DNA of 64,000 bases from a virus (Duplodnaviria; Heunggongvirae; Uroviricota; Caudoviricetes), in IMG/VR virus record IMGVR_UViG_3300042486_001111, one strand, 5' to 3'. Below the pieces are notes generated by a model. That model was given only the letters and a program-made list of their open reading frames with translations, was not told the DNA's origin and did not search any database. Position numbers and translations under genes: made by a program. Numbering within the stretch: position 1 is the stretch's first letter; every line of letters begins with the position of its first letter. This document shows positions 2,414 to 63,351 of the stretch, piece after piece.

Positions 2414-3127
2414 CTATTTGTTAGTACTTAGTATATCATTTATTGGTTTATCGAATCCAATACCAATACCGTTATTTGATATTAATACACCACCATTACA
2501 AATTTTGTTAGATTTAGTAACTGGTCCTCCTTCTAAGAAAAATATATCTGTCGCTAAAACATCATCACCTAATTTGTCATACTTGGCGTTAACACCCACA
2601 CATCCTGCGTCACCACTATTACTCGAAACATTTAACCTTTTCCAAGACATTATATTTGGGTTACTTAATGGTTTTAACCATAATAAAATTTTACCGTTAG
2701 TCATTAAATCTCTCAGAGATTTATCTGGAAATTTTTTAATAGTCCCAGCCTGATCAAAAGTAGTCAACTCTTCTGTAGTTAAACTACTCTCAACATCGTC
2801 AATATAATCAACAGAATTAATTTCCTTTAAGTAGGTGATAGGTTGTCTAAAATCAATTGTAGCACCCTCCCAAGCACTTGACTTATCATCAAATGTTAAA
2901 ATATTACCAACACTATCATAAATTTCAAATTGTTTTTGTGGGTTAAACCCAAACTTTACTTTAATATCGCTAACATAATTAGGTAACTCACTATTTAGGG
3001 CGGATACCAATTCACCGTTTATTTTTCTAAGTAATGTAGTTATATCGACAACAGATTCGTTTTCACTTATAACTCTTTTAACTATTCTGTTAAGATCACT
3101 TTCAGTTAATCTAATAATTTTTTTCAT
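2414..3127 (-). CDS. leader family A protein (MKKIIRLTESDLNRIVKRVISE...)
   Basis: Start moved to the internal Met that begins the conserved family A leader. Confidence 0.6.
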   Translation of the reverse strand: MKKIIRLTESDLNRIVKRVISENESVVDITTLLRKINGELVSALNSELPNYVSDIKVKFGFNPQKQFEIYDSVGNILTFDDKSSAWEGATIDFRQPITYLKEINSVDYIDDVESSLTTEELTTFDQAGTIKKFPDKSLRDLMTNGKILLWLKPLSNPNIMSWKRLNVSSNSGDAGCVGVNAKYDKLGDDVLATDIFFLEGGPVTKSNKICNGGVLISNNGIGIGFDKPINDILSTNK

Positions 3128-3137
3128 AATTTTTATT

Positions 3138-3398
3138 TTAACAACCGTCAAATTTAACTCTATTTTTAACTCTAAGAACTTCTCCTGGACTTATGCTATC
3201 ATTTCTCTTACCATTTAAAGCCTTAATATCGTCTAAAGTGATTCCGAAAGCCAATGCAATTTTTAACATTTGATCCCCACTGTTAACTTTATAACAACCA
3301 GTTTTATTCCCTCTTTTTATTTCTTCTGCGTTTGGGTGTTTTTCACCAGATGTCTCTTCGACTTCTTCTTTTAATATTCTTCTAATTAAATTTTTCAT
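3138..3398 (-). CDS. leader family B protein with C-terminal LysM domain
   Basis: N-term MKNLIRRILKEEVEE; C-term CYKVNSGDQMLKIALAFGITLDDIKALNG...PGEVLRV matches the LysM consensus. Confidence 0.65.
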   Translation of the reverse strand: MKNLIRRILKEEVEETSGEKHPNAEEIKRGNKTGCYKVNSGDQMLKIALAFGITLDDIKALNGKRNDSISPGEVLRVKNRVKFDGC

Positions 3399-3401
3399 AT
3401 C

Positions 3402-4262
3402 TTATCTTCTTCTTCTTACTTTAAATGGATTTCCACCTGACTTACTTTGGTACCTATCAAAAATTCTTCTAGACGTTTCTTCGTCACTAGTATTTAAATC
3501 CCATTTATTTTTCCCATCTCTTCCATATTTACTTTTTCTGAATGAATCAAAATCTTCAAACTCATCCTCATCAAAGTCATCATAATCTAATTTACCTGAT
3601 CTATTATTTCTATCCACTTTATATTCATCATCGAATGTACCGTAGTATTCATCGTCATCGTTTACATCCTTATCACTAACTCTGTAATATTTATTCACTC
3701 TTTCTTTTTCTTCAGGTGATAAGTTACCAAAATTTAAATCACCTAAAACTGGATGTCCATCGTCCATACCACCTAATTCACTTAACATAGTTTCATTAGT
3801 TCTTTTTCTATGTACATTAGATATCAATGTATTACCAATTACTCCACCACCTAATGCAGTACCTAAAGCCATTTGTAATACGTCTTCCGCAGAAATACCA
3901 CCTGCCATTGCAATACCACTAACTAAACCAACTAAACTAGTTAAACCTACTGTTGACATTTTTCTCTTCCAATACTCACCTTTACTTATTTTTTTTGGTT
4001 GCGCATCAGTATAATCGGAATATTCATAATCTTCATTCATTGAGTCTAAGTTATCTGATAATTCAGATGCAATTTCTGGATTATTCTGAAATATTGTTAC
4101 TAATTTTTGGAAATCTGGATTATTTTCTATTGACATTCCACTAAAGTCAGTTTCATTGCCTAGTTCTTCAGATGATGATACCCATTCCTCTTCACTTTCT
4201 CTTATTACTCTTTTTACAATTCTATGTAAGTCTGATTCTTTTAATTTTACAATTTTTTTCAT
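3402..4262 (-). CDS. leader family A protein with central Gly-rich hydrophobic segment and acidic C-terminus
   Basis: N-term MKKIVKLKESDLHRIVKRVIRE; glycine-zipper-like stretch GLVSGIAMAGGI...ALGGGVIG. Confidence 0.6.
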   Translation of the reverse strand: MKKIVKLKESDLHRIVKRVIRESEEEWVSSSEELGNETDFSGMSIENNPDFQKLVTIFQNNPEIASELSDNLDSMNEDYEYSDYTDAQPKKISKGEYWKRKMSTVGLTSLVGLVSGIAMAGGISAEDVLQMALGTALGGGVIGNTLISNVHRKRTNETMLSELGGMDDGHPVLGDLNFGNLSPEEKERVNKYYRVSDKDVNDDDEYYGTFDDEYKVDRNNRSGKLDYDDFDEDEFEDFDSFRKSKYGRDGKNKWDLNTSDEETSRRIFDRYQSKSGGNPFKVRRRR

Positions 4263-4315
4263 ATCAATTATTTTATTTATAAATATATTATGACTCTAAA
4301 AAGTTTTATCTTTTA

Positions 4316-8684: not shown

Positions 8685-9167
8685 TTATTGTCTATTCATA
8701 TATTCCCCACTATAATATTTTTTGTATGCGTGTGGATTTCTTCTAATATGAACTTTACCTGTCTCAGGATTTCTTAATTTATCAAAATCTCTTCTAGTTC
8801 TTAACGGTTTAAAATTATCATTAGGTATTTCACTTCTTTTTAATTCTGTGAAATCATCAAACTCATAATCTTCCCATTCTCCAGAATACTTTGGGTCATT
8901 GTGAAATGACCAATGTCCTCGATTTGTCATATACCTACCATATGGGTTTGAACTTAACGGATCATACCAAGAGTATGTACTATCCCATCCTTCAGGATCC
9001 CATCTATCTCTGACAGGTTTGGGTTCGTACTTAAAATCTGGAAAAGGTAGATCTTTTTCAAGCCAAGGTCTATTCTGATTTTTTTGAGTAAAGTCATCAG
9101 ATTCGTTAATAACTCTTCTAACGATTCTTTGTAAATCTGATTCAGTTATTCTTACAATTTTTTTCAT
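8685..9167 (-). CDS. leader family A protein (MKKIVRITESDLQRIVRRVINE...)
   Basis: Start set at the internal Met (ATG at 9165-9167) that begins the conserved leader. The longer ORF (to 9281) would run through the terminator at 9200-9226. Confidence 0.6.
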   Translation of the reverse strand: MKKIVRITESDLQRIVRRVINESDDFTQKNQNRPWLEKDLPFPDFKYEPKPVRDRWDPEGWDSTYSWYDPLSSNPYGRYMTNRGHWSFHNDPKYSGEWEDYEFDDFTELKRSEIPNDNFKPLRTRRDFDKLRNPETGKVHIRRNPHAYKKYYSGEYMNRQ

Positions 9168-9199
9168 AATTATATTTTTATTTATAAATATTACGAAAA

Positions 9200-9351: not shown

Positions 9352-11235
9352 TTAAAATCCCCAATCATAAGACTCCTTTAATTTCTTCATATAGTCGTAC
9401 CAAACAATTTTAGTCTCCTCACCAGTAAGCCCATAATTATTCTTACAGTAACTATCAAAATAAATTAACTGAGAATCTAACCCACTATAAGTATTATTTG
9501 TCGATAAACCAAATGTGTGTTCATAAACCGATTTAAATCCAGTCCTACCTGCGGAACTGCCTGGATAATAATAAGGAGGGTTAAACCAACTATTACCAAC
9601 TTCGGTATCCTTAAACAACCAATCAACAATCTTATCTAAATAAGCCTGTTTCTTATCGTCAGATTCATTTATGGGTTTAAGATCATACATTATAGATTCT
9701 TTATTGTACCTATCCTTAATAATTTTTTTATAGTTATTCCAAATGTATTTTGTCTCATCATAGTTTAACCCATAAGTATCCCTACAAGTTATCTGTATAT
9801 CCGAAGACATACCCCACGAAAGTTTATTTTTTAAATCATCAATAAAACTAGGTAACGGTTTACCATTCGGACCTATCTGAGAAAAAGGATATATTATAAC
9901 ACCCGTTTCATATCTAATTATAGTATCGTCAACAAACCACTTAAGAATCTTATCCAAATATTTTTGTTTCCTAACTTCAGATTCATTTAAAGAATTGTAT
10001 TTTTCAGATTCATATAAATCTTTCATAAACCCTTTCCACACATATTCAGTCTCATCTTCTGTAAGTCCATATTGTTCCTCACAGAATTTTTTAAAATAAT
10101 TCTTCTGAATTGCGAATTTTACAGATTCTACATCAGTAACGTATTTTAATAAACCAAACGTTTGTTTATAAAGAGAAGAAAGTGTGATACTATTTTCTGC
10201 GTACAAATTACCAGTTTTATATGGGGGTTCAAACCAAAGACTATTCACGTCTGTATCACTAACCAACCAATCAATAATCTTATTAAGGTAATTCTGTTTC
10301 TTATCATCAGATTCATAGATAGGTTCATTAGTAGGATCGTCACCAAACATAGTGTTCCTCATTATATCCTTATATTTCCCCCATACATAAGAAACATCTT
10401 TTATATATGTTATACCATATATTTCCTCAATGTATTCCATAAAACCACCTATAGGAATAACACTATCCTTATGAAAAAGAATTTTATGGAACGGTGTAGA
10501 ATTATCAGTATTTCGTCTAGTTGCAATCTTTTGAGTAAAAGGAAAAAATATTTCCCTTTCCTCATAATCCACTTTGGTATCCTTAACTAAAAAATCTACA
10601 ACCTTATCTAAGTACTTTATTTTTCTATCGTCAGACTCATTAAAGTAGAGGGGACTGACATTATTACCAAATACAATATTATACATAATAACCTTATATG
10701 TCTCCCAAACATAATCAATGTCCTCCGTTAAATTAATTCCATACATTTCCTCAATGTATTCCGTAAAACCATCAATAGGAATATATGTATCAAAAAGACG
10801 TTTATGAAAAGTTGTGAGATTACTACTACCTTGTCTAAGTGAGTTATTATATGTAAAAGGAAAAAATAACGTCTTATTATCATAATTTACTTTGGTGTCC
10901 TTAACTAAAAAATCAACAACCTTATCTAAAAAGTTTTTTCTTCTGTCATCAGACTCATTGATAGAACCACCTTTATTATTAATCTTTTCTTTAATCATAT
11001 CAATATAAATACCCCAAACATACAGAGATTCTTCATGAGTTAAACCATAGTTGTCTTTACAGTATTGAGAGTATCTACCCTTATGAAAAAAATAATCTAA
11101 ATTGGCGTCACTAATATATAATCTGTACGATGGAAAAAAAGGAAAATCTATATGGTTATCCCCATAGTCTATAATAGTGTCCTTAACCAGAAACTCTACC
11201 ACCTTATGTAAAAAATTTTTTCTATTGTTCTCCAT
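9352..11235 (-). CDS. 627-aa protein made of six tandem ~100-aa modules (DKVVDFLVKDT...FFPF...YGLT.E..YVW.Y)
   Basis: Six recognisable repeats, each starting R/K-K-x-x-[FY]L[DHN]K[VI][VI][DE][FW]LV[KS]DT and ending [YE]YGLT..E..YVW..Y. Confidence 0.6.
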   Translation of the reverse strand: MENNRKNFLHKVVEFLVKDTIIDYGDNHIDFPFFPSYRLYISDANLDYFFHKGRYSQYCKDNYGLTHEESLYVWGIYIDMIKEKINNKGGSINESDDRRKNFLDKVVDFLVKDTKVNYDNKTLFFPFTYNNSLRQGSSNLTTFHKRLFDTYIPIDGFTEYIEEMYGINLTEDIDYVWETYKVIMYNIVFGNNVSPLYFNESDDRKIKYLDKVVDFLVKDTKVDYEEREIFFPFTQKIATRRNTDNSTPFHKILFHKDSVIPIGGFMEYIEEIYGITYIKDVSYVWGKYKDIMRNTMFGDDPTNEPIYESDDKKQNYLNKIIDWLVSDTDVNSLWFEPPYKTGNLYAENSITLSSLYKQTFGLLKYVTDVESVKFAIQKNYFKKFCEEQYGLTEDETEYVWKGFMKDLYESEKYNSLNESEVRKQKYLDKILKWFVDDTIIRYETGVIIYPFSQIGPNGKPLPSFIDDLKNKLSWGMSSDIQITCRDTYGLNYDETKYIWNNYKKIIKDRYNKESIMYDLKPINESDDKKQAYLDKIVDWLFKDTEVGNSWFNPPYYYPGSSAGRTGFKSVYEHTFGLSTNNTYSGLDSQLIYFDSYCKNNYGLTGEETKIVWYDYMKKLKESYDWGF

Positions 11236-11542
11236 ACTTTGATATTAATAAAGTTGCCAATTTTATTCCGTACATATCCATAACTCTACGACACTCATCT
11301 TCTGTTAACCCATAATATCCCACAAGGTATTTAATGTCATCGGTACCGATTAACCATCCACTATGTAACCACTCCTTTAGTTCATCTTCCGTATAATAAA
11401 ATTCTAATTCCTCAATACCATACATTGGAAAATTCACACCTATGTGATCTCTGTTGGAAGGTTTTGTCCAGTGTTTGGTTCTCTTAACTAAATCGTCAAC
11501 AACATAATTGAAATATCTTCCTAATTTATCCTCCATATACAT
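11222..11542 (-). CDS. single-module member of the same repeat family (YVVDDLVKRTK...YGLTEDECRRVMDMY)
   Basis: Shares the module; overlaps the upstream gene by 14 nt. Confidence 0.5.
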   Translation of the reverse strand: MYMEDKLGRYFNYVVDDLVKRTKHWTKPSNRDHIGVNFPMYGIEELEFYYTEDELKEWLHSGWLIGTDDIKYLVGYYGLTEDECRRVMDMYGIKLATLLISKYGEQ

Positions 11543-11569
11543 AATATAAATATTGAAATATTTGGAAAC

Positions 11570-11852
11570 GAAAAAATTCCTGGAAAATTTTGAAGGGTAC
11601 CCCTAACCCCACCAGAAATGGGTGTTGTTTGTGGGGGATATAAAATAAAAAAAGGTTCATTTCTAAACCTTAAAATTTCCTGGAAAATTTGTGGACAACA
11701 TCACCTACCCCCTTTACGTCAAAACACCCCCAGAGGGAAGGGGGGTGATGTAGGGGTACCTGAGGGGGGACTCCCCTCTAGGGGAGAGGTATTGTATATA
11801 TTACTGTACACAAAGTACCCCCCTCCCCCTACGGACTATATATATGGTTTAG
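11570..11852 (-). ncRNA. candidate structured non-coding RNA (GC-rich island downstream of an orphan promoter)
   Basis: A TTGACA-17-TATATT promoter is followed by a 4-codon mini-ORF (ATG AAA AAT ACC TAA). After it lies a G/C-rich region, unusual for this genome, with duplicated ttcctggaaaattt boxes and palindromes (gggtacccc, tcccctctagggga). No plausible CDS. Confidence 0.25.
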
Positions 11853-11858
11853 GTATTT

Positions 11859-11887
11859 TTCATACTACAAATATAAGGATAAAATAT
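11859..11887 (-). promoter_or_regulatory. sigma70-like promoter TTGACAttgt-17-TATATT (orphan)
   Basis: Minus strand reads TTGACATTGTAATATTTTATCCTTATATTTGTAGTATG. It is nearly identical in architecture to the promoters at 15809..15837 and 29513..29541. Confidence 0.45.
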
Positions 11888-12171
11888 TACAATGTCAAAT
11901 TATAGGGAATAAAAAAAGGGATAATTTTTTTCGTTTTACAGATCACACTGTTACGATGATTATATTATCCCTTCTTATGTGATGAAGTGTAACCATATCT
12001 TTTGTTCAATACGTTACGTCCCTTCATCTAATCTACGTTGTCCAGTGATGACAAACAATTGTTCATCCATAATCACCTTTTCCTTCCATAGGGTGGGGAG
12101 GAAGGAAGGAACCCCGTAGATTAATATATCAAACAACTATGATACAATATTAACTATATTAAATTAAAAAG

Positions 12172-13044
12172 TCAATACCCATATCTCTTTTTTACACTCT
12201 CTTTTCTAGTATAATATTCAGAGGATCTTAAATACTGATCCAACCCTCTACCATTACTATCTATATAGTCTATAAGTTTTCCATCACCATATGTAAACCA
12301 TTCTTTATATTTAGTACCAGAGTTAGGATAATTACTTTCCTTATATATTACATTACCATCATCATCGTATTCATCAATAAAATAATTACCGTTTCTAGAT
12401 TCCATATATCTAGATTGTCCATATATATCTGTAACGTATATGGCGTCTACTACATCCTTCACCACTAAGTCCTCATTAAATACTTTAGATATAATACCAT
12501 CCCATTCATCTCTTGGTATCCCTAATGATTCTAGATCATACCTAAATGGTGGTTTCAATGTATCTATTATTTTATCTATTAGTTTATCACTATACACAGA
12601 CTCATTGAGATCATAATCTGGATCCTTTACATCAGATATTTTACCCTCAGAGTTTTCATAGTATATAGATTCACCCTTATCATTAAATATTGATTTCTCC
12701 CAATATTCATTTCCTTTACCATCTGTTTTAAATAGATATGTTACATTATCGTTCTTATCGAATTCTCTGATCACATAGTCACCACCTTCACCTTCATAGT
12801 ATAATATATTAGTTCCCTTATCTGTTACTATACCACCTGTTATTTGTTCATCACGATAGAATGAAGACACTAATACATTTTGATTATATAATGTATAAAA
12901 CACACCTCTCCATTCATCCTCTGGTACACCTAATCTTTGTAGATCCAAAAAGTATGGTGGACGTATTACCTTAGATAGTTTATCATAATATCTTTGTTTA
13001 TAATCATTCGATTCCTTAATGATTCCTTTAATTGTTACCTTCAT
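12172..13044 (-). CDS. protein with two PPY..DL.SLG.P..EW modules and MORN/YwqK-like Gly-Tyr repeats
   Basis: YYDKLSKVIRPPYFLDLQRLGVPEDEW and LIDKIIDTLKPPFRYDLESLGIPRDEW; YYEGEGGDY...YYENSEGK repeats. Confidence 0.5.
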   Translation of the reverse strand: MKVTIKGIIKESNDYKQRYYDKLSKVIRPPYFLDLQRLGVPEDEWRGVFYTLYNQNVLVSSFYRDEQITGGIVTDKGTNILYYEGEGGDYVIREFDKNDNVTYLFKTDGKGNEYWEKSIFNDKGESIYYENSEGKISDVKDPDYDLNESVYSDKLIDKIIDTLKPPFRYDLESLGIPRDEWDGIISKVFNEDLVVKDVVDAIYVTDIYGQSRYMESRNGNYFIDEYDDDGNVIYKESNYPNSGTKYKEWFTYGDGKLIDYIDSNGRGLDQYLRSSEYYTRKESVKKRYGY

Positions 13045-15079: not shown

Positions 15080-15802
15080 TTAATTTATTTTATCTCTCTT
15101 TACACACCTATTAACATAAGAACATAATGGTTGTAAATTACTATGGTGATTTAATCTAATGATATCTTCCACACACTTACCAGATGATACAGGTATTATA
15201 TGATCTAAATCCCACCCATATCTTTCTTCTCCATTATACTTACCATAGTTATCCCAATTCATCCATTCTTCCCATTGTGATTCTATTTGTGTTTTAAATT
15301 CTTCGTATGTACAACCTAATATCTTATATGATTTAGTTTTTTTAGTGTAACCTTTTAGTCTAAAGGATTGTTTTAATAAGTTTCTAATATTAGTAGTAAG
15401 TTTATAAAGTGAATCAGATTGTCTCCTTACTTTATTATATTCTTTTATTTTATCTTTATTATTTTCCCTGTATTCTTTATTATATTCTTTCATTTTATCT
15501 TTATTATTTCCCCTGTATTCTTTACCATATTCTTTTACTTTATCTTTATTGTTCTGTTTATATTCTTTATCATATTCTTTTAATTTATCTTTATTGTTCT
15601 GTTTATATTCTTTATCATATTCTTTTATTTTATCTTTATTATTTTCCCTGTATTCTTTTTTACCTTTTTTTATTTTATCTTTATTATTTTCATAGTATTC
15701 TTTCTTGTATTCTTTACTACATAGTCTACATTCAGACCTACCTTTATTAAACTCAGATAATTCTTTTTCTTCTTTACATTTGGTACATACTTTCTTTTCC
15801 AT
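15080..15802 (-). CDS. HNH endonuclease with N-terminal zinc ribbon and 8 tandem 11-aa KEYxxNNKDKxKEY repeats (likely homing endonuclease)
   Basis: CTKCK...CRLC near the N-terminus; repeats; DHIIPVSSGKCVEDIIRLNHHSNLQPLC resembles an HNH motif. Confidence 0.75.
   Translation of the reverse strand: MEKKVCTKCKEEKELSEFNKGRSECRLCSKEYKKEYYENNKDKIKKGKKEYRENNKDKIKEYDKEYKQNNKDKLKEYDKEYKQNNKDKVKEYGKEYRGNNKDKMKEYNKEYRENNKDKIKEYNKVRRQSDSLYKLTTNIRNLLKQSFRLKGYTKKTKSYKILGCTYEEFKTQIESQWEEWMNWDNYGKYNGEERYGWDLDHIIPVSSGKCVEDIIRLNHHSNLQPLCSYVNRCVKRDKIN
15410..15750. repeat. tandem ~33-bp DNA repeats (coding, inside the HNH gene)
   Basis: Repeating tattctttattatattcttttattttatctttattatt units seen directly. They give a spurious poly-Tyr/Leu antisense ORF (15409..15750 +). 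Confidence 0.6.
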
Positions 15803-19361: not shown

Positions 19362-19799
19362 TTACTTCAATGGTGGAAGATTGTCATATTCATCCTGAGC
19401 ATTACCAAAATCAATTGCCCCTTGTATTAATCTGGTTATTCCATTATAGTCATTAGTTGATAATACCATACTGTTTGTTCCTTTAACTTCTTCTAAATAG
19501 TTAATACTTTTTCCCATTGGGAATTTAAGGAAAATAGCAAGTGATACTTTAGATGGGTCGTTCACTGATTTTGTTGCAACCATCACTTTAAATCCCCTTT
19601 TTGGAAGGGAATAAATTTCCATACCATCAATGTTTTTAACATAATTAAACCCATGTTTTACCGTAAATAAATCACTTAATAATTTATTATTGATTTGACT
19701 AAAATCGGAAGATTGTTCACCACCTTCTTCGTTTTCTCGAATAACCCTTCTAACGATTCTATTTAAATCTGATTCCGTAAGTTTTATAATTCTTTTCAT
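19362..19799 (-). CDS. leader family A protein (MKRIIKLTESDLNRIVRRVIRE...)
   Basis: Conserved leader. Confidence 0.6.
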   Translation of the reverse strand: MKRIIKLTESDLNRIVRRVIRENEEGGEQSSDFSQINNKLLSDLFTVKHGFNYVKNIDGMEIYSLPKRGFKVMVATKSVNDPSKVSLAIFLKFPMGKSINYLEEVKGTNSMVLSTNDYNGITRLIQGAIDFGNAQDEYDNLPPLK

Positions 19800-20020
19800 A
19801 ATAATATTTTATTATAAATATATTATATATACAAAAAATCCCCACTTATGAGGTGAGGATTTATCTTTTTCCGTAATAATCGAAATAGTCTTTTCTGTCT
19901 TTAAGTACCGTTACTATCAGAAACGTTATACTTAGTATACTTAATATAATCATATCGTATATATACTAAGATAAACTATATTGTGTAACCTTTGTATATT
20001 ATGAAATTGTTATGATATAA

Positions 20021-20335
20021 TCACCAAAAGGTAATTATATTATCACTACTAGTTTGTCTCCATTGACCTTTACCTGTGGGTTTTTTAAGTTTATCCGATT
20101 CAGGATATTCATTATTATCATATGTTGCCAACATTTTACCTTTACTAGAATTTGGAAGCATCTCATAAAAGGTTAATTTGGTATCATCTTTTTCCCAAAG
20201 TCCTACACCATATCCTGGGTTCCATTTTGATGGTGCGGGTATTTTCATCACCCACTGATTGGGGTCACCTTCATTGATAACTCGTTTAACAATATTAACC
20301 AAATCTGATTCTCTAAGTTTAACTATTCTTTTCAT
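20021..20335 (-). CDS. leader family A protein (MKRIVKLRESDLVNIVKRVINE...)
   Basis: Conserved leader. Confidence 0.6.
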   Translation of the reverse strand: MKRIVKLRESDLVNIVKRVINEGDPNQWVMKIPAPSKWNPGYGVGLWEKDDTKLTFYEMLPNSSKGKMLATYDNNEYPESDKLKKPTGKGQWRQTSSDNIITFW

Positions 20336-20386
20336 ATCTAATATTTTATTATAAATATATGTTAAAAAGAAAAAACCCCTATATTC

Positions 20387-25018: not shown

Positions 25019-26431
25019 TTAAGCCATATTAGTCGTGTCATTTTTATTAATATCATCACTACCCTTTTCCTTAATTTCATTTTGTGCCAAATCATTAAGT
25101 TCTTTTAAAAACACAGTAAGTTTTGGTGTCATACCACCTATTACCCAACAAGCAATCAAACGTTCAAAATCAAGTGATGGTTCATTATTGTTTATTGTTG
25201 CCTGTATATGAGTCGAAAGTATACTTAGTGGAATATCCTCACCAAGTTTTATCATATTATTGTCAGTTAAATAACTTCTATATCCTGCTAAGTTTGATAG
25301 TTTTTCATTCCAATCACAATTGTATCCACTTTTCCAGTCATCACCAGTAAAATGTTTTTTTAACTTTTCTACATCAATACCTTTAGACTGTAATTCTTTT
25401 TTGGTGTCAGCAGGAATTGATTCAGTTTGTGATAAATTTTTAATATTTACATCATCTTTTCCTTCTAGTTCACCATAATAATCATATGCTGAAGGTAACG
25501 CTTGTTGTATAGTTATTGTCGAATTAAGTTTTCGAACTTTTCTCCATAGTATGTGTTGTATTTCATGAACAAAAGTGTCTTCTGTTTTTTGAGCGACTTT
25601 ACCTATACCACTTTTTTTATACATTCTAAAATATGATTCCATATTAACACATACTGTGTATTCAGGACAATTACCATTAACATACATATTTGCATTTATT
25701 TCTTCCGCCTGTTTAGTATAATCAGTCCACCCTTTTTTTTCTATTTTATCTAATGCAGATAAATAATCATCAATTACATCACTACCAAGAGTAGTTAAAT
25801 AATCCCACATTTCCATGTTAGATCTTATCTTTTTTTGTACTGCTGGAGTTTTCAAATACGATCTCCAATATTTTAGTGCATATTTAAAACTACCATCTAA
25901 TGTTTTAGGTATTATTACTTTTTTTGCTTCAATATCTTCTTTAGGTAATAATTTAAATGACATATCAAATACCGTTTGAGCATCAACCTCACAAGTCTTA
26001 GCCAACTTAGTACATGTTATAACAATCATTGCCCCAACCGCCTTTAACATTTTTGGTCCATATCCAGTAGTTTCACCCACATCATACCCTTGTTTTTTTA
26101 GTTGTAACCACAATTTATTTACAGTATCTATACCTGATTTTGTGCCGTATCTCCAATAACCTAAAGCCTTCGCAGTTTGATTACCGAAATCCCAATCTTT
26201 AGAAATATTCCAACCAATTGCAATTAAAAAATCTTGTACACCACCAGCACCTTCATATGGGTTAGGAACTCTTTCATCACTAAAGAATTTTTTTTCTGCA
26301 ATTTGTTTATAATACCAACATCTTTTACCTGCACTAACCCCTTCAACAAGTAATTGACTTTCACTAATAACCCTCTTTACTATTCTATGTAAATCAGATT
26401 CAGTTAATTTAATTATTTTTTTCCCATTCAT
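25019..26431 (-). CDS. leader family A protein (470 aa) with HExxH zinc-metallopeptidase motif and putative peptidoglycan-binding-like region
   Basis: MNGKKIIKLTESDLHRIVKRVISE leader; TFVHEIQHILW; the N-terminal region resembles PG-binding repeats (weak). Confidence 0.55.
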   Translation of the reverse strand: MNGKKIIKLTESDLHRIVKRVISESQLLVEGVSAGKRCWYYKQIAEKKFFSDERVPNPYEGAGGVQDFLIAIGWNISKDWDFGNQTAKALGYWRYGTKSGIDTVNKLWLQLKKQGYDVGETTGYGPKMLKAVGAMIVITCTKLAKTCEVDAQTVFDMSFKLLPKEDIEAKKVIIPKTLDGSFKYALKYWRSYLKTPAVQKKIRSNMEMWDYLTTLGSDVIDDYLSALDKIEKKGWTDYTKQAEEINANMYVNGNCPEYTVCVNMESYFRMYKKSGIGKVAQKTEDTFVHEIQHILWRKVRKLNSTITIQQALPSAYDYYGELEGKDDVNIKNLSQTESIPADTKKELQSKGIDVEKLKKHFTGDDWKSGYNCDWNEKLSNLAGYRSYLTDNNMIKLGEDIPLSILSTHIQATINNNEPSLDFERLIACWVIGGMTPKLTVFLKELNDLAQNEIKEKGSDDINKNDTTNMA

Positions 26432-26817
26432 AATCTCACATTACTTAAATCTATTGGTTTAACTTCTTCATCATAATAATCGTCACCATCAAAACCATAT
26501 TTTTTTATTGCACTATCTTGTTCATTTCTTTCTACAACTTCCCAACCACGACCATCAAACTCCTCAAAATAAATCCATTGTCCACCCATTTTAGGGTGAA
26601 CAAACACATCACCACCCGTGTCAATTCCATAGATTTTTAACTCCATACCAAATATAACTTCAAGTACTTTTAAAATCTCCTTATTGGTTAAACCCATTGT
26701 ATCCATATCTGTAACATATGGTGGTTTTACTATAGAAGCAATTTTTTTATAGAGTTTATCTTCCGCATCTTCTTTTAGTATTTTTTTAACTATATTTTTT
26801 ATGAGTAATCTATTCAT
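26428..26817 (-). CDS. leader family B protein with PPY..D.D..G module
   Basis: N-term MNRLLIKNIVKKILKEDAED (carries the family B IVKKILKE core); module KKIASIVKPPYVTDMDTMGLTNKEILKVLEVIFG. Confidence 0.55.
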   Translation of the reverse strand: MNRLLIKNIVKKILKEDAEDKLYKKIASIVKPPYVTDMDTMGLTNKEILKVLEVIFGMELKIYGIDTGGDVFVHPKMGGQWIYFEEFDGRGWEVVERNEQDSAIKKYGFDGDDYYDEEVKPIDLSNVRL

Positions 26818-36031: not shown

Positions 36032-36415
36032 TTTTTCCCAAGTACCGTTATTTAATAATAAATAGGAACCGACATAACTTTGTTTCCATTCACTAGGTGG
36101 TATAATACTTAAAAATTTACTCCCATTTTTTCTTTCGTATAGATGATAAGTTTCCCCAACTATTGGTTGGAAGTTGTAATCTGATTCATAGACTAATTTT
36201 GTATCAACATATTTACTGACTAATGTTTCGTATTCTTTTTTTAATTCGTTTAGTCTACTATTAAAATATTTATCAGCCTTTACCCCTTCACTTTTATCGA
36301 CAATAATGGGATCAAACTTTTGTGATCCCACTGTTGTCGGATAGTTCTTTAAATTGGCGTCGAATTTACCAGTCTCTTCATTATAAACTATATTGTCAGG
36401 ATATTTTTTTATCAC
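36026..36415 (-). CDS. hypothetical protein (129 aa)
   Basis: Intact ORF; ATGA overlap with the downstream gene. Confidence 0.45.
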   Translation of the reverse strand: MIKKYPDNIVYNEETGKFDANLKNYPTTVGSQKFDPIIVDKSEGVKADKYFNSRLNELKKEYETLVSKYVDTKLVYESDYNFQPIVGETYHLYERKNGSKFLSIIPPSEWKQSYVGSYLLLNNGTWEKL

Positions 36416-37488
36416 AATAAATGTGCTTTAGATTCAGCCATACCCGAAGGTGTGATTTCCACAGTTTCCGATTTTAAATGGAAATTCTTTATGTTGTTAG
36501 AACCACTATAGGACAACGCTGATTTAATACCATCAGTTAATTTCTCTATTATGATATCGACACTACCTTTATAAGGTATTAATGTTGACTCACCCTCTAC
36601 GTGTTTTGTTGATTGACCGTGAGATGATTTAGTTTCTAAACTAGCAGAACCTCTATATTTTTTACATAAAAGTCCATCACCCTTTGTAATAATTTTACCT
36701 GGCGATTCTTTGGTACCAGCCAATAGTGAACCTAACATTACACAATCTGCACCGATTGATAATGCCTTTGCAATATCACCACTACTTCTAATACCACCAT
36801 CCGCCATAACAGGAACTTTAGAACCTTTTACACAATCAATGATAGACGTTACATTTGGTACTCCGTGTCCTGTTTGAATTCTGGTGGTACACAAACTACC
36901 ACCACCAATACCAACTCTTAATCCATCCGCACCCCATTCACATAAATCAATTGCGGACTCCTCCGTTGATATGTTTCCAGCAATAATGTCTATTCTTTCA
37001 GGTAAAACCTCCCTAAGTTTTTGAATCATATTTTTAACATTTTTGTGGTGTCCGTGTGCAACATCAATTAAAATTATATTTGCACCACACTTAACCAAAC
37101 TCTCCGCCCTACTAACATCTGATTCACTAACACCTACGGCAGCCATAACAGGTATGTCCTGTATCTCTGCGTGCCAATTATCGTACATAACACCCCAATT
37201 TTCATGCATATGGTTTGTAGTTATGTATTCCATAACCTTCCCTACTTGTTCACATTGCTCCTCAACAGTCATAAAACGGTGTATACATCCAACACCACCA
37301 AACTCAACCATTTTGATTGCCATCCTATATTCACATACAGTGTCCATACAAGATGCAACATAAGGTTTTAAGATACCATATCTTCTACTGACTAATGTTG
37401 ATAAATCAATACTGTTTCTTGTTTCTATTTCCGAGTACTTAGGTACTAACAGAATATCATCGTAAGTTAATGCTCTCTTCATTTTCAT
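36412..37488 (-). CDS. GMP reductase / IMP dehydrogenase family protein (no CBS insert, GuaC-like)
   Basis: ALTYDDILLVPKYSEI...GGVGCIHRF...GIGGGSLCTTR active-site loop. Confidence 0.8.
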   Translation of the reverse strand: MKMKRALTYDDILLVPKYSEIETRNSIDLSTLVSRRYGILKPYVASCMDTVCEYRMAIKMVEFGGVGCIHRFMTVEEQCEQVGKVMEYITTNHMHENWGVMYDNWHAEIQDIPVMAAVGVSESDVSRAESLVKCGANIILIDVAHGHHKNVKNMIQKLREVLPERIDIIAGNISTEESAIDLCEWGADGLRVGIGGGSLCTTRIQTGHGVPNVTSIIDCVKGSKVPVMADGGIRSSGDIAKALSIGADCVMLGSLLAGTKESPGKIITKGDGLLCKKYRGSASLETKSSHGQSTKHVEGESTLIPYKGSVDIIIEKLTDGIKSALSYSGSNNIKNFHLKSETVEITPSGMAESKAHLL

Positions 37489-41043: not shown

Positions 41044-43452
41044 ATGGACAAACTTACGAAATTTGAGATAAAAATACTATCCTATTTAGATAAAAAGATT
41101 GATAACACCTCCAATAAGGATCAAGTGTTTAAAATACTTAAAGATGAATTTGGGTTGGATAAATCTGAGGTACTAGATTTATATAGACTTTGGTACTATA
41201 ATAAGGGTACTGGTGATTACGATACAATAGAAGTAGATAGAGAAGGACCTCTTCTCAATTTTTTGAATAATATATCTTTATTAAATTCAAACGTAAATGA
41301 ATATATAGATGAGTTATATGATAACAATCGTGAAAAATTAGACTCTTTAATCGGTGACTGGTTTGTTTTATGTAATAACTACAATACACCCTGTTTAGAC
41401 TTTGGAAATGAGTCAGTGACAATAACTTTAGATAGAGATGAATGGGAAAAATATTTTTCTGGGTTAGGTGATGATGATTTATGGAAATATTATGAGGCAT
41501 TTAGTTCTTATGGTGATTACTATGAAGAAATAGAAACATCAGAGTTTGATTATGTATATACTAATGATGAGACAGTAGAACACTTAGAAACTTTGGCGAT
41601 ACTGTCAGGGTTATCTGAATGGCCTGGTAAAGATGGTAAAAAGATTGGGGAACAAGAAGTTAACGATTTTTTAGGTGAAGTATTACCTAAAGAATATTAC
41701 GAAAGGATAGTTGATGATTATATAGGTGAGATGAGTATTGTCATAACTAGGGCTAGACAAGATAGTGTAAGAAAAACTTATACAAATGAAATTAAATACG
41801 ATACTAATAAAACTAGATGTAGATTCGGTGATTATTGTATAGAAATACCGTATGTTGAATTAATAGAAATAGTAAAAGAAAGGAATCTACTTAATCTTTC
41901 TGAATTAAAAGATGCGGAAATACAACCTGATGTTGATTTGGAGGATGCTTACTACGGTGAGTGGATTGATAGTGATGGTGTAGATGAGGTGGTTACCGAA
42001 CTAAACAGATCATTAAAATCCACAATAGAAAAAATTACTGAATCAGAAGATATTGACTTAGAGGAGTTAATATTAAATAGAAAGTATGTTTTAGATTTAT
42101 TAAATAAATTAGGTTTTAAAAAAATAACAGACACTTCGCAGGGTGAATATTATATGGCTAGAAATGGTATATTAACACTATATAGTAACGATATCGACTT
42201 TAAAAATAATAAAGTTAAATTCACATACGATGATCAAACACATATAACACCCATAGAAGAATTAACTAATTGGGTTTCAGGTAGTGTTTTAGATTTAAAC
42301 GAAAGTGTTAGATACAATAAGAAAGTAAAATTACTAGTAGAAAGTTATAATCTAATCAACAAAATTTCAATATTTGATTTCGATGGTACATTAATGAAGA
42401 CACCACACCCTGAAGAAGGTAAGAAACAGTGGGAGGAATTTACTGGTAAAGAATATCCACATATAGGATGGTGGAGTAAACCAGAGTCTTTAGATGATGC
42501 AGTATTCGACATACAACCTATAGAAAATACTGTTGCAGATTACCTAAGAGAGAAATCTAATCCTAGTACTTTAGTAATAATGTTAACAGGTAGAATACCA
42601 CATCAGTCAGAACAAATAGAAGAATTATTACTATTACATAACATATCTTTTGATGAATATCACTATAAAGGTAATGGCGATACTTTGACTAGTAAATTTA
42701 ATACCATTAAAAGTCTACTGAATAGATTCCCTAATGTTAATCAGATAGAAATGTGGGAAGATAGAGAACCACACGCCATTGAGTTTAAACAGTGGGGAAA
42801 AGAAAATGGAGTAAACTTAAAAGTTAATTTAGTCACTAGTGATGGGCAAATTATAAAAGGTGGTGTAAATGATTTAGTCAACGAGTCTATCGATAAAAAA
42901 AAAATTTTATTCGATAAAATTTCAAAATTAATCAATCCACCTTATTTTTCTGATTTAGAATCTTTAGGTATACCACAATCTGAATGGGATACAATACTTA
43001 GTGTTGTTTTTAGTAAAGAAGTACATTTGGATTTTTACCAACAATTCATTGAAGTTAGGGATAGAAATAATGGTAGACTAACCTATAGGGAATGGCCTAA
43101 CGGTGATTGGGCAGATTTCGATAAAGGTGTTGAGAATTTACAGATTCATACGATGGGTGATATAAACGAATCAGTTACCAATGACTTAATAGATAAAGTA
43201 GTACCCAAATTAGAACCACCTTACATATACAATTTATATTCTATGGGGTTTGACTCAACAGATTCTGAAAAAATACTGTCTAAACTATTTGGTAAAATGG
43301 TTCATATATATGATGACAGTGTATATAATTCTTCCACAAATTCTGTTAGTAAACCAACAGAATCTAGAGTTCAGGATATTGAGACTGACGATGTACTATA
43401 TGTAGAATACTATAAAGGTGACTCTATAGATTGGATAGATTGGAGATACTAA
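41044..43452 (+). CDS. large multidomain protein (802 aa) with central HAD-like hydrolase motif and two C-terminal PPY..DL.S.G modules
   Basis: IFDFDGTLMKT (DxDGT); KISKLINPPYFSDLESLGIPQSEW and VVPKLEPPYIYNLYSMGFDSTDSE. Confidence 0.55.
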   Translation: MDKLTKFEIKILSYLDKKIDNTSNKDQVFKILKDEFGLDKSEVLDLYRLWYYNKGTGDYDTIEVDREGPLLNFLNNISLLNSNVNEYIDELYDNNREKLDSLIGDWFVLCNNYNTPCLDFGNESVTITLDRDEWEKYFSGLGDDDLWKYYEAFSSYGDYYEEIETSEFDYVYTNDETVEHLETLAILSGLSEWPGKDGKKIGEQEVNDFLGEVLPKEYYERIVDDYIGEMSIVITRARQDSVRKTYTNEIKYDTNKTRCRFGDYCIEIPYVELIEIVKERNLLNLSELKDAEIQPDVDLEDAYYGEWIDSDGVDEVVTELNRSLKSTIEKITESEDIDLEELILNRKYVLDLLNKLGFKKITDTSQGEYYMARNGILTLYSNDIDFKNNKVKFTYDDQTHITPIEELTNWVSGSVLDLNESVRYNKKVKLLVESYNLINKISIFDFDGTLMKTPHPEEGKKQWEEFTGKEYPHIGWWSKPESLDDAVFDIQPIENTVADYLREKSNPSTLVIMLTGRIPHQSEQIEELLLLHNISFDEYHYKGNGDTLTSKFNTIKSLLNRFPNVNQIEMWEDREPHAIEFKQWGKENGVNLKVNLVTSDGQIIKGGVNDLVNESIDKKKILFDKISKLINPPYFSDLESLGIPQSEWDTILSVVFSKEVHLDFYQQFIEVRDRNNGRLTYREWPNGDWADFDKGVENLQIHTMGDINESVTNDLIDKVVPKLEPPYIYNLYSMGFDSTDSEKILSKLFGKMVHIYDDSVYNSSTNSVSKPTESRVQDIETDDVLYVEYYKGDSIDWIDWRY

Positions 43453-46685: not shown

Positions 46686-47117
46686 CTATCTTTTCTTACG
46701 ACCTTGACAATGTGCTCTCTGAGAGAACCCTTTTGGGTTATTACAATCTATGGAATTTTTATATTCTTTACTCCACTTTTCATTCATCATATCACTATCA
46801 TCTATATTCATAGATAACTCCATACCATACTTTTTACTTTCATTCATTAAGAAATCAAATACTTGATCCATATTGTTTTTTGCTTCCGCAATGTGATCTT
46901 GAGCCCAATCGTGTCCATTTTCTAAAACACCCTCAACCATTTCTGGATCCATATCTAATAATATATCACATTGTCTTCTCATTTGTTGTAAGTTTGAGAA
47001 GAACATATATCTATTTCCTCTATCGTGATGTTCATTACCTTGTACATTAATTTGGTCCATAGTTTTTCTAACCATGTTTTTAATGTCTTCTTCCGTTAAT
47101 TTAACTATTCTTTTCAT
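46686..47117 (-). CDS. leader family A protein (MKRIVKLTEEDIKNMVRKTMDQ...)
   Basis: Diverged family A leader. Confidence 0.55.
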   Translation of the reverse strand: MKRIVKLTEEDIKNMVRKTMDQINVQGNEHHDRGNRYMFFSNLQQMRRQCDILLDMDPEMVEGVLENGHDWAQDHIAEAKNNMDQVFDFLMNESKKYGMELSMNIDDSDMMNEKWSKEYKNSIDCNNPKGFSQRAHCQGRKKR

Positions 47118-47139
47118 ATCATTAATTTTTTATTTTTAT

Positions 47140-57062: not shown

Positions 57063-57108
57063 ACAAAAAAACTTTATTATTGTTATTATCTATAAATATT
57101 CTATAAAA

Positions 57109-57134
57109 TAAAAAAACCCACATCAGTGGGTTTT
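57109..57134. terminator. bidirectional intrinsic terminator (cccac-atca-gtggg + T-run)
   Basis: aaaaaaacccacatcagtgggtttt. Confidence 0.55.
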
Positions 57135-57466: not shown

Positions 57467-57494
57467 AAAAGGGGGGTACAAAATGTACCCCCCC
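57467..57494 (-). terminator. intrinsic terminator (ggggggtaca-aaa-tgtacccccc)
   Basis: 10-bp GC-rich hairpin followed by a T-run on the minus strand. Confidence 0.55.
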
Positions 57495-57516
57495 TTCAAA
57501 CAAAAACTTTAGAGAA

Positions 57517-59555: not shown

Positions 59556-60206
59556 TTAATTATCCAAACAATCAGGTAAAAAAAGTAATGTTGGGTTCTT
59601 TTTTTGTATGTCTACGTCAGGATACTTATCTTTGAACTTCTTTACATCGAACTTTTTTGTGATTAAATGGTGTCCATTTTTAGTTGGTATAATTGCCTCT
59701 ATTTTGGGTCCAACTTCATGTCCAATTGGCATTCCTACCTCGTCAAATTTAACTTTGGTAATTGGATCACATTTATATTCAATAAATGCTATCATCACAG
59801 GACTATAAAGGTGTTCACCATCTACATCTACAATCCATCTCTTCTCCTGTGTTTTAATTTGTCCAACAACAGAATCAAACAAACCTTTCTGATTTGTCAC
59901 ACCGTCTCTAATACGTTCCGCAAGTAATGACAACATATTCAAAGAAACATCATTATGATTTTGTTTCTGAACGTGAATGTATGCCCTAGCCTTAAACATC
60001 TCACATAATTGTTTTACCTCATCGTATCTTCTTTCTAAATGTTCTACCGAATCAATACAATAAGTTTTGATAGTACGAACTGATTGGTGGTTATCTCTTT
60101 CACCTTCTGGTTGATCCTTCTTTCTTTTAAAGACATACAACATATAAAAGTCACCTTTTTCTGTGAAATTTAATAACGGTTTAATTAATTCTATATTATC
60201 TATCAT
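59556..60206 (-). CDS. hypothetical protein (216 aa) inside the RNA-repair gene neighbourhood
   Basis: Intact ORF; ATGA overlap with the RNA ligase gene. Confidence 0.45.
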   Translation of the reverse strand: MIDNIELIKPLLNFTEKGDFYMLYVFKRKKDQPEGERDNHQSVRTIKTYCIDSVEHLERRYDEVKQLCEMFKARAYIHVQKQNHNDVSLNMLSLLAERIRDGVTNQKGLFDSVVGQIKTQEKRWIVDVDGEHLYSPVMIAFIEYKCDPITKVKFDEVGMPIGHEVGPKIEAIIPTKNGHHLITKKFDVKKFKDKYPDVDIQKKNPTLLFLPDCLDN

Positions 60207-61273
60207 AACTTTTTAAATTCTGGTTTAAGTGCCTTCCAAATAATCTTATCATAATCTTTTCCATCCCACATCGCAAACATTATTGCCTTAACGATTGGGT
60301 GTTTATCTTTAATAAATTCCGCAAACTCTTTCTTAGTCGGTTCCACTTCTATGTCACCATATTTACCAAACCTAAAGTAATCATATGTTTTACCTAATTG
60401 ATTCCAGTATTGGTAATACCCATAGTTTAAAGAACTAACATATAATTTAATTTTATTGTAGAATTCATCTGGTACATCTTTTAATAACTCCAACACATCT
60501 TTACCCTCACTTAACATTTCCCATATTGCAGTGGTAGATACGTTAGTCATTATCTTATGTAGACGAAGATACTCCTCACCCTTAACTTTCATCCTATCAC
60601 CGTTAGAGAACTGAACAACGAAACCTTCTTCATCGTCTCCTATCATTCCCTTCAATAATGAATAGTCTTTTATACCATCGTATTGTTTTACTACCTTAAA
60701 ACCAATATTAGTTATTAAATTTTTTAATCTGATATCATTCTCTTCATTACATAAATCAACTTCATAACCAGTTTTAGTTTCTATCATACCCAATAAAACC
60801 AAATCCTCAAATGAGTATTTTACCACAATACGATTCTCATCATATATTATCTCAAACAGATATGTATAATCTTTATGAAGTTTCTCATAGCCATAGTTCT
60901 TCAACATCTCAAACCCTTTAACTGCCTGATCAGAAGTAAAGGAACCTCTAGTCGCCAAAACCCAAACATCATTATAAGAAAATAGAATACCCAAAGAACC
61001 ATCCATCTTTTCGTAGACACTAAATTGTTCTGTAGGTGTATGTCTACCCTCTTCTATGTTAAAGAATTTACGGAATGGTCTTGCCACAATATCCCCATTA
61101 GAGTTTGTAACTAATCCACGACACATTAATGTGATGTCATCCCATAGTCCTTCGTACTGAACCTTTTCAGAATAATTCCAAATATCTAAATCCAATGTCT
61201 GATGGGATTGTCTGTATAACAATCCATCCTCTTCATATTTTTTAAGTATCTCTTTCATATCCTTATTTTTCAA
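60203..61273 (-). CDS. ATP-dependent RNA ligase (covalent nucleotidyltransferase, KxDG)
   Basis: Motif I YEKMDGS, motif IV EEGFVVQF, motif V RMKVKGEEY. Confidence 0.65.
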   Translation of the reverse strand: MKNKDMKEILKKYEEDGLLYRQSHQTLDLDIWNYSEKVQYEGLWDDITLMCRGLVTNSNGDIVARPFRKFFNIEEGRHTPTEQFSVYEKMDGSLGILFSYNDVWVLATRGSFTSDQAVKGFEMLKNYGYEKLHKDYTYLFEIIYDENRIVVKYSFEDLVLLGMIETKTGYEVDLCNEENDIRLKNLITNIGFKVVKQYDGIKDYSLLKGMIGDDEEGFVVQFSNGDRMKVKGEEYLRLHKIMTNVSTTAIWEMLSEGKDVLELLKDVPDEFYNKIKLYVSSLNYGYYQYWNQLGKTYDYFRFGKYGDIEVEPTKKEFAEFIKDKHPIVKAIMFAMWDGKDYDKIIWKALKPEFKKL

Positions 61274-62754: not shown

Positions 62755-62828
62755 GTGGTCCCTGTTGGGATCGAACCAACCACCTACTGATTATGAGTCA
62801 GTTGCTCTAACCGAATGAGCTAAGGGAC
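62755..62828 (-). tRNA. tRNA-Met (CAT) (elongator or Ile2-lysidine type)
   Basis: GGTCCCT-TA-GCTC-ATTCGGTTA-GAGC-A-ACTGA-CTCATAA-TCAGT-AGGTG-GTTGG-TTCGATC-CCAAC-AGGGACC-A folded by hand; 74 nt. Confidence 0.8.
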
Positions 62829-62908
62829 CTAATGGGTAGAATCAGACGCGTTCTGTCTACCGAGACCTTGTCGTTAACTTTCGTCAGAGCGGAACAAGAC
62901 ACTATTAG

Positions 62909-62982
62909 TGATCCCGAATGGATTCGAACCATTGACCTACTGCTTAGAAGGCAGTTGCTCTATCCAGCTGAGCTACGGGACC
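62909..62982 (-). tRNA. tRNA-Arg (TCT)
   Basis: GGTCCCG-TA-GCTC-AGCTGGATA-GAGC-A-ACTGC-CTTCTAA-GCAGT-AGGTC-AATGG-TTCGAAT-CCATT-CGGGATC-A; 74 nt. Confidence 0.8.
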
Positions 62983-63238: not shown

Positions 63239-63273
63239 AAAAGTATTAACCAATAAATTAAAGAACATTCTAG

Positions 63274-63345: not shown

Positions 63346-63351
63346 GGTTTG

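Follow-up and report, generated by a model that had tools for sequence, protein, structure and literature searches.

What is encoded by a long intergenic gap in an uncultured phage genome in which nearly all genes run in one direction? We analysed 64,000 nucleotides (nt) of the IMG/VR virus record IMGVR_UViG_3300042486_001111 (Caudoviricetes), referred to here as the window, and focused on positions 11543-12171, a gap of 629 bp between the open reading frames (ORFs) 11222..11542 and 12172..13044, both on the minus strand. A preliminary description based on the letters of the window had noted the gap as poor in ORFs and had suggested that a GC-rich island within it, downstream of an orphan promoter, specifies either a noncoding RNA (ncRNA) or a cis-acting element such as a replication origin (ori) or packaging site (pac). 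The gap indeed lacks a conserved ORF. Its GC content is anomalous, as described, but the island spans ~11700-11850 rather than 11580-11850: the GC content is 50-56% at ~11700-11850, 35-43% at 11550-11700, and ~30% in the genome. As argued below, we consider it fairly probable that the gap contains two adjacent, separately transcribed ncRNA genes on the minus strand, here named RNA-A and RNA-B, which form a cassette conserved in a clade of AT-rich aquatic phages.

Lack of conservation in relatives had been set beforehand as part of the refuting test, and this test fails because the region is strongly conserved. Two IMG/VR contigs found via the proteins flanking the gap have gap DNA that is ~88% identical to that of the window, compared with 88% and 69% identity for the flanking proteins. 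A 20-nt core of RNA-B was found in a further contig, QCKH01000009.1 (63,985 bp, 29% GC; IMGVR_UViG_2716884754_000003; L005/L007 in our numbering of loci), which at the DNA level shares with the window essentially the RNAs only. This record was deposited as the single-cell genome of Prochlorococcus sp. AG-409-L21 and is viral in IMG/VR; it may represent an infecting or co-sorted phage, or it may be a hint to the host. A gapped pattern search added a fourth IMG/VR contig of 159.6 kb as well as 70 metagenome loci, and the four IMG/VR contigs with the cassette span 54-166 kb. The 63 loci that have the RNA-B core at the exact 33-nt spacing are homologues; they comprise 53 distinct sequences of marine and freshwater origin, and one of them (L055) is identical to the window over the stretches compared. 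Judged from these comparisons, conservation of the gap exceeds chance. Searches by blastn of GenBank phages with the window region and with a diverged (type II) cassette returned chance hits only. Among species-representative bacterial and archaeal genomes, the exact 20-nt core occurred only in QCKH01000009.1 and in one chance hit, and a literature search for the RNA sequences gave no match.

The two RNAs also keep their arrangement. RNA-A lies immediately upstream of RNA-B in 44 of the 45 loci with enough upstream sequence, and this order is fixed while the neighbouring protein genes change; the flanking genes belong to at least five different families among the loci, with several unrelated families of small paralogous genes on either side. 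The fixed pairing amid gene turnover argues for a joint function under selection. Because the first downstream ORF likewise falls into at least five unrelated families across loci, the cassette lacks the consistent link to one downstream gene family that is expected of a gene-specific cis-regulatory leader such as a riboswitch or attenuator.

Each RNA is preceded by a predicted promoter (Table 1). The promoter of RNA-B is the orphan TTGACA-17-TATATT site of the preliminary description; it is present on the minus strand at 11898..11870, matches the consensus at 11 of 12 positions, and was the top site of the scan. The TATATT hexamer (11875-11870) reads as TATATTTG through 11868, the predicted start is the A at 11863, and it is kept in every relative with sufficient upstream sequence. 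The four-codon mini-ORF reported downstream of it (ATG AAA AAT ACC TAA) is found at 11863 to 11849. In the homologues this 5' leader is variable, with an AUG and 1-7 codons that differ among loci, and the AUG belongs to a promoter context that other genes of the window use for very short leaders. The promoter of RNA-A overlaps the stop codon of ORF 12172..13044, with a predicted start at the A at 12140; its sequence is identical in L001 and L002, and the same layout recurs in type II and type IV relatives. The pattern TTGAC-N17-21-TAnnTTTGT occurs 4 times in the window vs 0.2 times expected (20-fold enriched), and TAnnTTTG is found before 10 of 68 ORFs vs 5% of random 60-nt windows, which is a modest enrichment. 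This recurrent promoter fits both sigma-70 and the -7 box of Bacteroidota sigma-A, which in Flavobacterium and Bacteroidota has the sequence TAnnTTTG at -12 to -5 (PMC9723704); the start position of RNA-A was predicted from this placement in Flavobacterium.

Both RNAs are also predicted to end at intrinsic terminators. The RNA-A hairpin has a folding energy of -19.8 kcal/mol (z -4.9) and the 18-nt RNA-B hairpin one of -7.3 kcal/mol (z -2.4), each followed by U7. Neither was detected in a simple terminator scan, owing to a 38-nt loop in one and the presence of just two G-C pairs in the other. A T-run lies within 60 nt of RNA-B in 41 of 48 loci; the L005-type loci have none. Thus, as expected for independent small-RNA genes, RNA-A and RNA-B each appear to have a promoter of their own and, according to the folding predictions, an intrinsic terminator, with the exception of L005-type RNA-B. 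Where one unit giving a single ~280-nt transcript had been proposed, we find two separate promoter-to-terminator units, and the transcript from the orphan promoter is predicted to be ~217 nt long, ending at the terminator at 11671 to 11647.

Table 1. Predicted features of the RNA-A/RNA-B cassette (window coordinates)
Feature	Position	Strand	Description
RNA-A promoter	12145..12175	-	TTGACT (12175-12170), 17 nt, TAATATTG (12152-12145; TAATAT)
RNA-A	~12140 to 11911 (~230 nt)	-	promoter, covarying fold, terminator
RNA-A 5' tail	12140-12125	-	invariant, single-stranded, 16 nt, AUAGUUGUUUGAUAUA
RNA-A closing helix	12122-12115 with ~12036-12029	-	encloses two hairpins
RNA-A enclosed hairpin 1	~12110-12080	-	conserved loop UCCCCACCCUA
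RNA-A enclosed hairpin 2	~12077-12043	-	long hairpin
RNA-A further hairpin	~12027-11981	-	follows closing helix
RNA-A terminator	11976-11913, U-run to 11911	-	hairpin
RNA-B promoter	11868..11898	-	TTGACA (11898-11893), 17 nt, TATATT (11875-11870)
RNA-B	~11863 to 11647 (~217 nt)	-	rich in G/C runs; promoter, hairpins, near-invariant 3' domain, terminator
RNA-B P1 hairpin	11829-11781	-	
RNA-B P2 hairpin	11778-11762	-	
RNA-B 3' domain	11759-11692	-	CCCCCC-UUCCCUCU-GGGGG-UGUUUUGAC...GGGGGUAGGUGAUGUUGUCCAC
RNA-B palindrome	11690-11672	-	AAAUUUUCCAGGAAAUUUU
RNA-B terminator	hairpin 11671-11654, U7 11653-11647	-	
Element C	11640 to 11571	-	degenerate copy of RNA-B 3' module

We next consider the structure of the RNAs, for which folding with homologues had been recommended. 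RNA-A is represented by 37 distinct sequences, every one of which begins with YAUAGUUGUUUGAUA. RNAalifold of 11 window-like (type I) sequences gave 57 pairs, 14 of them with compensatory changes, and a consensus fold in which a 19-nt unpaired 5' tail is followed by a helix around two hairpins, another hairpin, and the terminator. The inverted repeats AAGGGATAAT/ATTATCCCTT and TTCCTTCC..GGAAGGAA, which had been placed a few bases off at 11908/11958 and 12068-12105 and described as lying beyond the island, exist at 11913-11925/11964-11976 and ~12081-12108 and are the terminator and a hairpin of RNA-A, respectively. A covariance model built from type I RNA-A only matched the diverged marine types II and III over their full length with 24-46 bits. 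In the RNA-A alignment, which was fitted to the model, 87% of cells are paired, 38 of 47 pairs show two-sided change, and the covariation score is 0.51 vs 0.19 for shuffled alignments and ~0.1 for slid partners. Many pair changes are from G-U to A-U or G-C, and folding favours the sense over the antisense strand by 8.8 kcal/mol, with an advantage in 35 of 37 sequences. Because of the G-U changes and the folding advantage of the sense strand, the modelled structure is that of a minus-strand RNA and not of a DNA cruciform. These data support that the structure of RNA-A is kept by compensatory changes.

In some relatives, a second RNA-A paralogue is present. In the marine relatives L028 (2990-3426 on the minus strand, with the paralogue at L028:3193-3426) and L038, a different short unit lies behind this paralogue and carries promoter-like and terminator-like signals of its own, suggesting that these relatives have a second pair of small RNAs. 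We also noticed by eye that GUUGUCCA and UGGACAAC could pair RNA-A with RNA-B; the two are complementary in the window, but the RNA-A side varies in relatives with no compensation, and we rejected this pairing.

RNA-B combines variable hairpins with an almost frozen 3' part. P1 forms in all 41 RNA-B variants despite differing stems, lengths, and inner hairpins, and in P2 a G-run pairs with the neighbouring C-run and the base of the helix covaries. The 3' domain of ~90 nt is nearly invariant, with the consensus CCCCCC-UUCCCUCU-GGGGG-UGUUUUGA(Y)-N5-7-G-run-UGAUGUUGUCCAUGA-AUUUUCCAGGAAAUUUU, and ends in the palindrome AAUUUUCCAGGAAAUUUU, followed by the terminator. With a nested-fold model, each locus yields a single strong copy (94-201 bits). 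On this model, 92.5% of cells are paired and 15 of 30 pairs show two-sided change, mostly in P1, P2, and P3 and including 4 of the 7 pairs of the X:S7 helix; the covariation score is 0.25 vs 0.13 (shuffled) and 0.02-0.10, all of these counts coming from an alignment fitted to the nested model. By this measure, compensatory changes keep the structure of RNA-B as well. RNAalifold on a plain MAFFT alignment gave a weak signal because the G/C runs align ambiguously. Together, the models indicate that RNA-A is a clearly structured RNA and RNA-B a partly structured one. Conservation, covarying helices, and G-U pairs specific to the minus strand thus support the minus-strand ncRNA originally suspected downstream of the orphan promoter.

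A double pseudoknot like that of hepatitis delta virus was considered for RNA-B by eye and rejected since the order of the G and C runs is unsuitable. At L027, L034, L037, and L052, the metagenome contigs break within the G/C runs of RNA-B, probably due to coverage drop-out at GC-rich hairpins of AT-rich genomes; such drop-out may also account for two larger contigs ending 1-2 kb from the cassette. Elsewhere in the window, GC-rich hairpins followed by T-runs at 57470-57497 and 57108-57131 are likely terminators in AT-rich DNA; one of the pair, GGGGGGTAC-N4-GTACCCCCC, resembles P1 of RNA-B and gives a weak match to the RNA-B model (20.7 bits).

The dependence of the RNA-B counts on a fitted alignment is one of several points that weigh against two free-standing structured RNAs. 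The 3' domain of RNA-B barely varies, and its candidate folds are the nested X:S7 plus S5:S6 arrangement or an S5:S7 helix with a pseudoknot; a comparison of the two favoured neither, and a scan of all column pairs in the ungapped alignment of the 3' domain found no convincing covariation. Folding of RNA-B differs little between the strands (1.6 kcal/mol; 28 of 41 sequences), and for both RNAs the start sites and 3' ends are predicted. For RNA-A, no target complementary to the 5' seed was found in the window or in the relative loci searched, other than the RNA-A genes themselves; in a scan of IMG/VR with a 14-mer of the 5' motif, chance matches dominate among the matches listed. Lastly, RNA-B of the L005-type relatives lacks its own terminator and continues into element C and the next gene, an arrangement that suits a leader better than a free-standing small RNA.

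This last observation bears on processive antitermination, in which the nascent RNA alters RNA polymerase so that it passes the following terminator. The antitermination RNA put of phage HK022 is cis-acting, ~70 nt long, and has two stem-loops, and the nut sites of lambda are likewise cis-acting antitermination sites. RNA-B, and possibly RNA-A, could be a cis-acting leader of the downstream early genes in the manner of put, nut, or EAR, with element C as the second copy (as in putL/putR and nutL/nutR). This explanation is in line with the position of RNA-B, which in a long one-directional gene array immediately follows a strong promoter and immediately precedes an intrinsic terminator, and with the weakness of that terminator (-7.3 kcal/mol), the run of L005-type RNA-B into the next gene, and the partial second copy before other genes; contact with a conserved host machine would also be expected to leave the sequence nearly invariant among diverged phages. 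RNA-B thus resembles put and nut as a structured RNA under strong constraint that lies right after an early promoter and before terminators, with two related copies per genome. It differs from put in its length of ~217 nt, in its G/C-run helices, in usually ending at its own terminator, and in having no sequence similarity, and the Rfam searches indicated no homology, the put/nut/EAR-type layout of a promoter-proximal structured RNA followed by terminators being compatible. Against antitermination, the downstream genes differ among loci and mostly have AT-rich promoter-like motifs of their own, RNA-A ends in a strong conserved terminator (-19.8 kcal/mol), element C precedes the apparent promoter of the next gene instead of following it, and there is no sequence or Rfam similarity to known antiterminator RNAs. 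On balance, we regard antitermination as possible but unlikely, and favour two separately transcribed RNAs.

The palindrome at the 3' end of RNA-B raises the question of whether this part acts as DNA. Two copies of TTCCTGGAAAATTT had been reported, and they are found at 11572-11590 and 11672-11690 with 95% identity; the palindrome GGTACCCCTA/TAGGGGTACC and the dyad TCCCCTCTAGGGGA are present as well. Element C comprises a dyad CACCC-AUUUCU-GGUG, which repeats the CACCC..GGUG dyad of RNA-B, and a second palindrome, AAAAUUUUCCAGGAAUUUUUU (11591-11571), and ends 29 nt upstream of the ATG of the next gene at 11542. It is conserved in L001, L002, L005, and L008, follows RNA-B by no more than 120 nt in 18 of 48 loci, and is weakly matched by the RNA-B model in relatives; a module of this type also precedes another gene (L020:505-590). 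The palindrome core TTTTCCAGGAAA has just two sites in 64 kb with at most one mismatch, and in relatives the palindrome/element C recurs in front of different genes, at 39-56 bp from their start codons. As an RNA hairpin, AAAUUUUCCAGGAAAUUUU was rejected, with -1.4 kcal/mol being worse than shuffles. Because it forms no stable RNA hairpin and recurs upstream of gene starts, the palindrome is most likely a DNA site for a dimeric regulator, for which it is a candidate on sequence grounds.

Extending this to the whole 3' part of RNA-B and element C, both would act mainly as DNA, that is, as paired operator or enhancer sites formed by the dyad CACCC..GGGTG and the palindrome TTTTCCAGGAAA for a phage or host regulator of neighbouring promoters, with the RNA being incidental. 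The exact symmetry and invariance of the palindrome, its poor hairpin, its restriction to two places, its recurrence close to gene starts, and a 3' domain nearly without covariation all suit this explanation. It leaves unexplained the conserved promoter and terminator that bracket RNA-B, the covarying P1 and P2 with their G-U pairs, and all of RNA-A; it agrees with the two-RNA explanation for the palindrome only, and we judge it decidedly unlikely as an account of the locus.

The same G-U-containing covariation, which indicates RNA, speaks against the island being a replication origin or a pac/cos site. A GC-rich, dyad-rich island in AT-rich DNA beside promoters would suit such a site, as would the ends of two related contigs 1-2 kb away (L001 at contig position 1; the L005/L007 core at ~1.1 kb). 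A simpler explanation of these ends lies in the paralogous gene arrays next to the locus together with coverage drop-out at the G/C runs, and in a 166-kb contig the locus is internal, at ~111 kb. We found no inflection of the GC skew at the locus, the cumulative skew being monotonic across it, no iteron array beyond the two palindrome copies, and no repeat-flanked AT-rich unwinding element; the genes around the locus form a long one-directional array, and no terminase was recognised near it in protein family searches of the window. The ori/pac option of the preliminary description thus appears very improbable.

Hardly plausible, finally, is the explanation that the gap encodes small proteins, for which there are three sets of candidates: a 95-amino-acid (aa) ORF on the plus strand, the four-codon ORF, and an ORF of 10-33 codons that starts at the (GTG)ATG in GUGAUGUUGUCC and reads M-L-S-x-N-F-P-G-N-F through the palindrome. 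Such ORFs exist in the gap, and the NFPGNF frame is open in most relatives. The 95-aa ORF (11618..11905, plus strand) had already been taken for an artefact of composition, and in relatives its frame is lost through indels of 1-3 nt, the stop-free stretch on the plus strand ranging from 38 to 81 aa among 49 homologues. The micro-ORF MLSxNFPGNF was rejected for want of synonymous change: its codons AAT TTT CCA GGA AAT TTT show none in 53 distinct sequences, and the neighbouring codons change the residue (T/M/I/V, L/F). Further, the C termini of the micro-ORF differ, and its ATG is ATA in several sequences. The absence of synonymous change, the differing C termini, the lost ATG, and the 95-aa frame broken by 1-2-nt indels place the constraint on nucleotides and not on a peptide; a conserved frame with codon-wise substitution was not seen in the gap.

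The RNAs match no known family. With Rfam 15 at the gathering threshold, the whole window yielded only five tRNAs (62.7-63.4 kb), and the E-value search of 11400-12300 gave a best hit of 18.8 bits against a threshold of 60 bits; in six relatives, the RNA region had no match. ARAGORN likewise reported only the five tRNAs at 62755-63426 and no tRNA or tmRNA in the gap. The Rfam scan that had been advised is therefore negative for the RNA region. Based on Rfam 15, ARAGORN, and the GenBank phages, RNA-A and RNA-B are best read as new RNA families. We regard the cassette as a solid, new small-RNA pair and not as a new principle.

How could two such RNAs work? Both would be stable, early RNAs that are made from host-type promoters and act in trans. 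RNA-A would most likely base-pair via its 5' seed, perhaps with a contribution of the C-rich loop CCUCCCCACCC, and its target would be conserved and lie outside the sequences at hand. RNA-B would most likely serve a conserved partner, either a protein or an RNA, as ligand or scaffold, with contacts running through the invariant single-stranded segments UUCCCUCU, UGUUUUGA, and UGAUGUUGUCCAUGA, and a regulator at the palindrome would link the downstream promoter to the 3' end of RNA-B. For experiments, RNA-A offers a testable handle in its invariant 16-nt 5' end on a covariation-supported fold; in RNA-B, a sequence of ~90 nt is almost frozen and comes together with a palindrome of DNA type that also occurs at downstream promoters. 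Large uncultured aquatic phages have many unexplained intergenic islands, and this one resolves into two RNA families.

Several known RNAs are similar in part. In T4, RNA C and RNA D (species 1 and 2) are stable small RNAs with no assigned function that lie within the tRNA cluster and are processed from a precursor. The cassette shares with them the pairing of structured small RNAs in the early or accessory part of a large lytic phage genome in which tRNAs and Rnl1- and Pnkp-like enzymes are also encoded; here, however, the tRNAs are 50 kb away from the pair, a separate promoter and terminator are predicted for each RNA, and we found no sequence relation to RNA C or RNA D. RybB and OmrA are trans-acting small RNAs with a 5' seed, and RsaE and RoxS are small RNAs with C-rich loops. 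RNA-A resembles the former in its unpaired invariant 5' end, structured body, and Rho-independent terminator but is far longer (~230 nt) and more elaborately folded, and C/U-rich loops are present in both RNAs of the cassette (CCUCCCC and UUCCCUCU), as in the latter. To our knowledge, Bacteroidota, the presumed hosts, lack Hfq. Like phi29 pRNA (RF00044), these are structured phage RNAs from an early promoter, with a self-complementary element that might allow RNA-RNA dimerisation; they differ from it in the absence of an Rfam hit, in phage type and genome position, and in being unconnected with packaging genes. The structured-RNA candidates from IMG/VR (PMC10690425) are objects of the same kind, being conserved structured motifs between genes of uncultured phages.

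A more far-reaching version of the two-RNA explanation, which we consider unlikely, is that RNA-B represents a novel RNA class with a conserved host machine as its binding partner and that RNA-A is the partner riboregulator of RNA-B, the two forming an early takeover module. In the most attractive form, RNA-B of Bacteroidota phages would modify RNA polymerase in a put-like, factor-independent manner, the palindrome-binding regulator would be the switch of RNA-B, and RNA-A would be a seed-bearing riboregulator of a host target. If either RNA acts on the host transcription or translation machinery, this would be a rare RNA-based case in Bacteroidota phages. The gene-expression signals of these bacteria differ from those of model systems; Bacteroidota are described as mostly devoid of Shine-Dalgarno sequences (PMC6847099).

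The setting of the cassette is a long one-directional gene array, with nearly all genes of the window on the minus strand. Recognisable products include an Rnl1-type RNA ligase, a HAD/Pnkp-like protein, a GMP-reductase/IMPDH homologue, and DUF932, in addition to the five tRNAs; in protein family searches, the majority of the remaining proteins had no family match. By protein similarity, the nearest cultured relatives are Flavobacterium phage vB_FspM_immuto (160 kb) and Tenacibaculum phage pT24, and one large protein with no assigned function matches huge uncultured phages only. Because of this gene content and these protein relatives, the window looks like an early or accessory region of a large lytic phage, and the hosts are, tentatively, probably Flavobacteriia.

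Finally, we made several observations on other parts of the window. The tRNA cluster (Met, Arg, Leu, Glu, Asp; 62755-63426, minus strand) adjoins the Rnl1-type RNA ligase gene, and together with the HAD/polynucleotide-kinase-like protein the set resembles a T4-style tRNA-repair toolkit (62755-63426 and 60203-61273 on the minus strand, 41044-43452 on the plus strand). ORF 36412-37488 (minus strand) encodes a full-length homologue of IMP dehydrogenase/GMP reductase (Pfam E value 1e-103), an auxiliary nucleotide-metabolism gene. Next to the gap, ORF 9352..11235 (minus strand) consists of tandem modules of ~318-330 nt that are kin to the 106-aa ORF 11222..11542 (window 9352-11542) and to the arrays of ~90-aa 'MxNKKYLDKV..LVRGTKIDY' genes flanking the RNA cassette in relatives; in L001, the equivalents are fused into a single 534-aa ORF. 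ORF 15080..15802 contains a 45-nt tandem repeat at 15385-15789 (~7 copies, 61-100% identity). A 68-nt repeat with eight copies (63-100% identical; examples at 3076-3143, 4211-4278, 9116-9183, 19748-19815, 20284-20351, 26374-26441, and 47066-47133) spans the start and first codons of different minus-strand genes, which appear to be paralogous early-gene families with common N termini and upstream regions.

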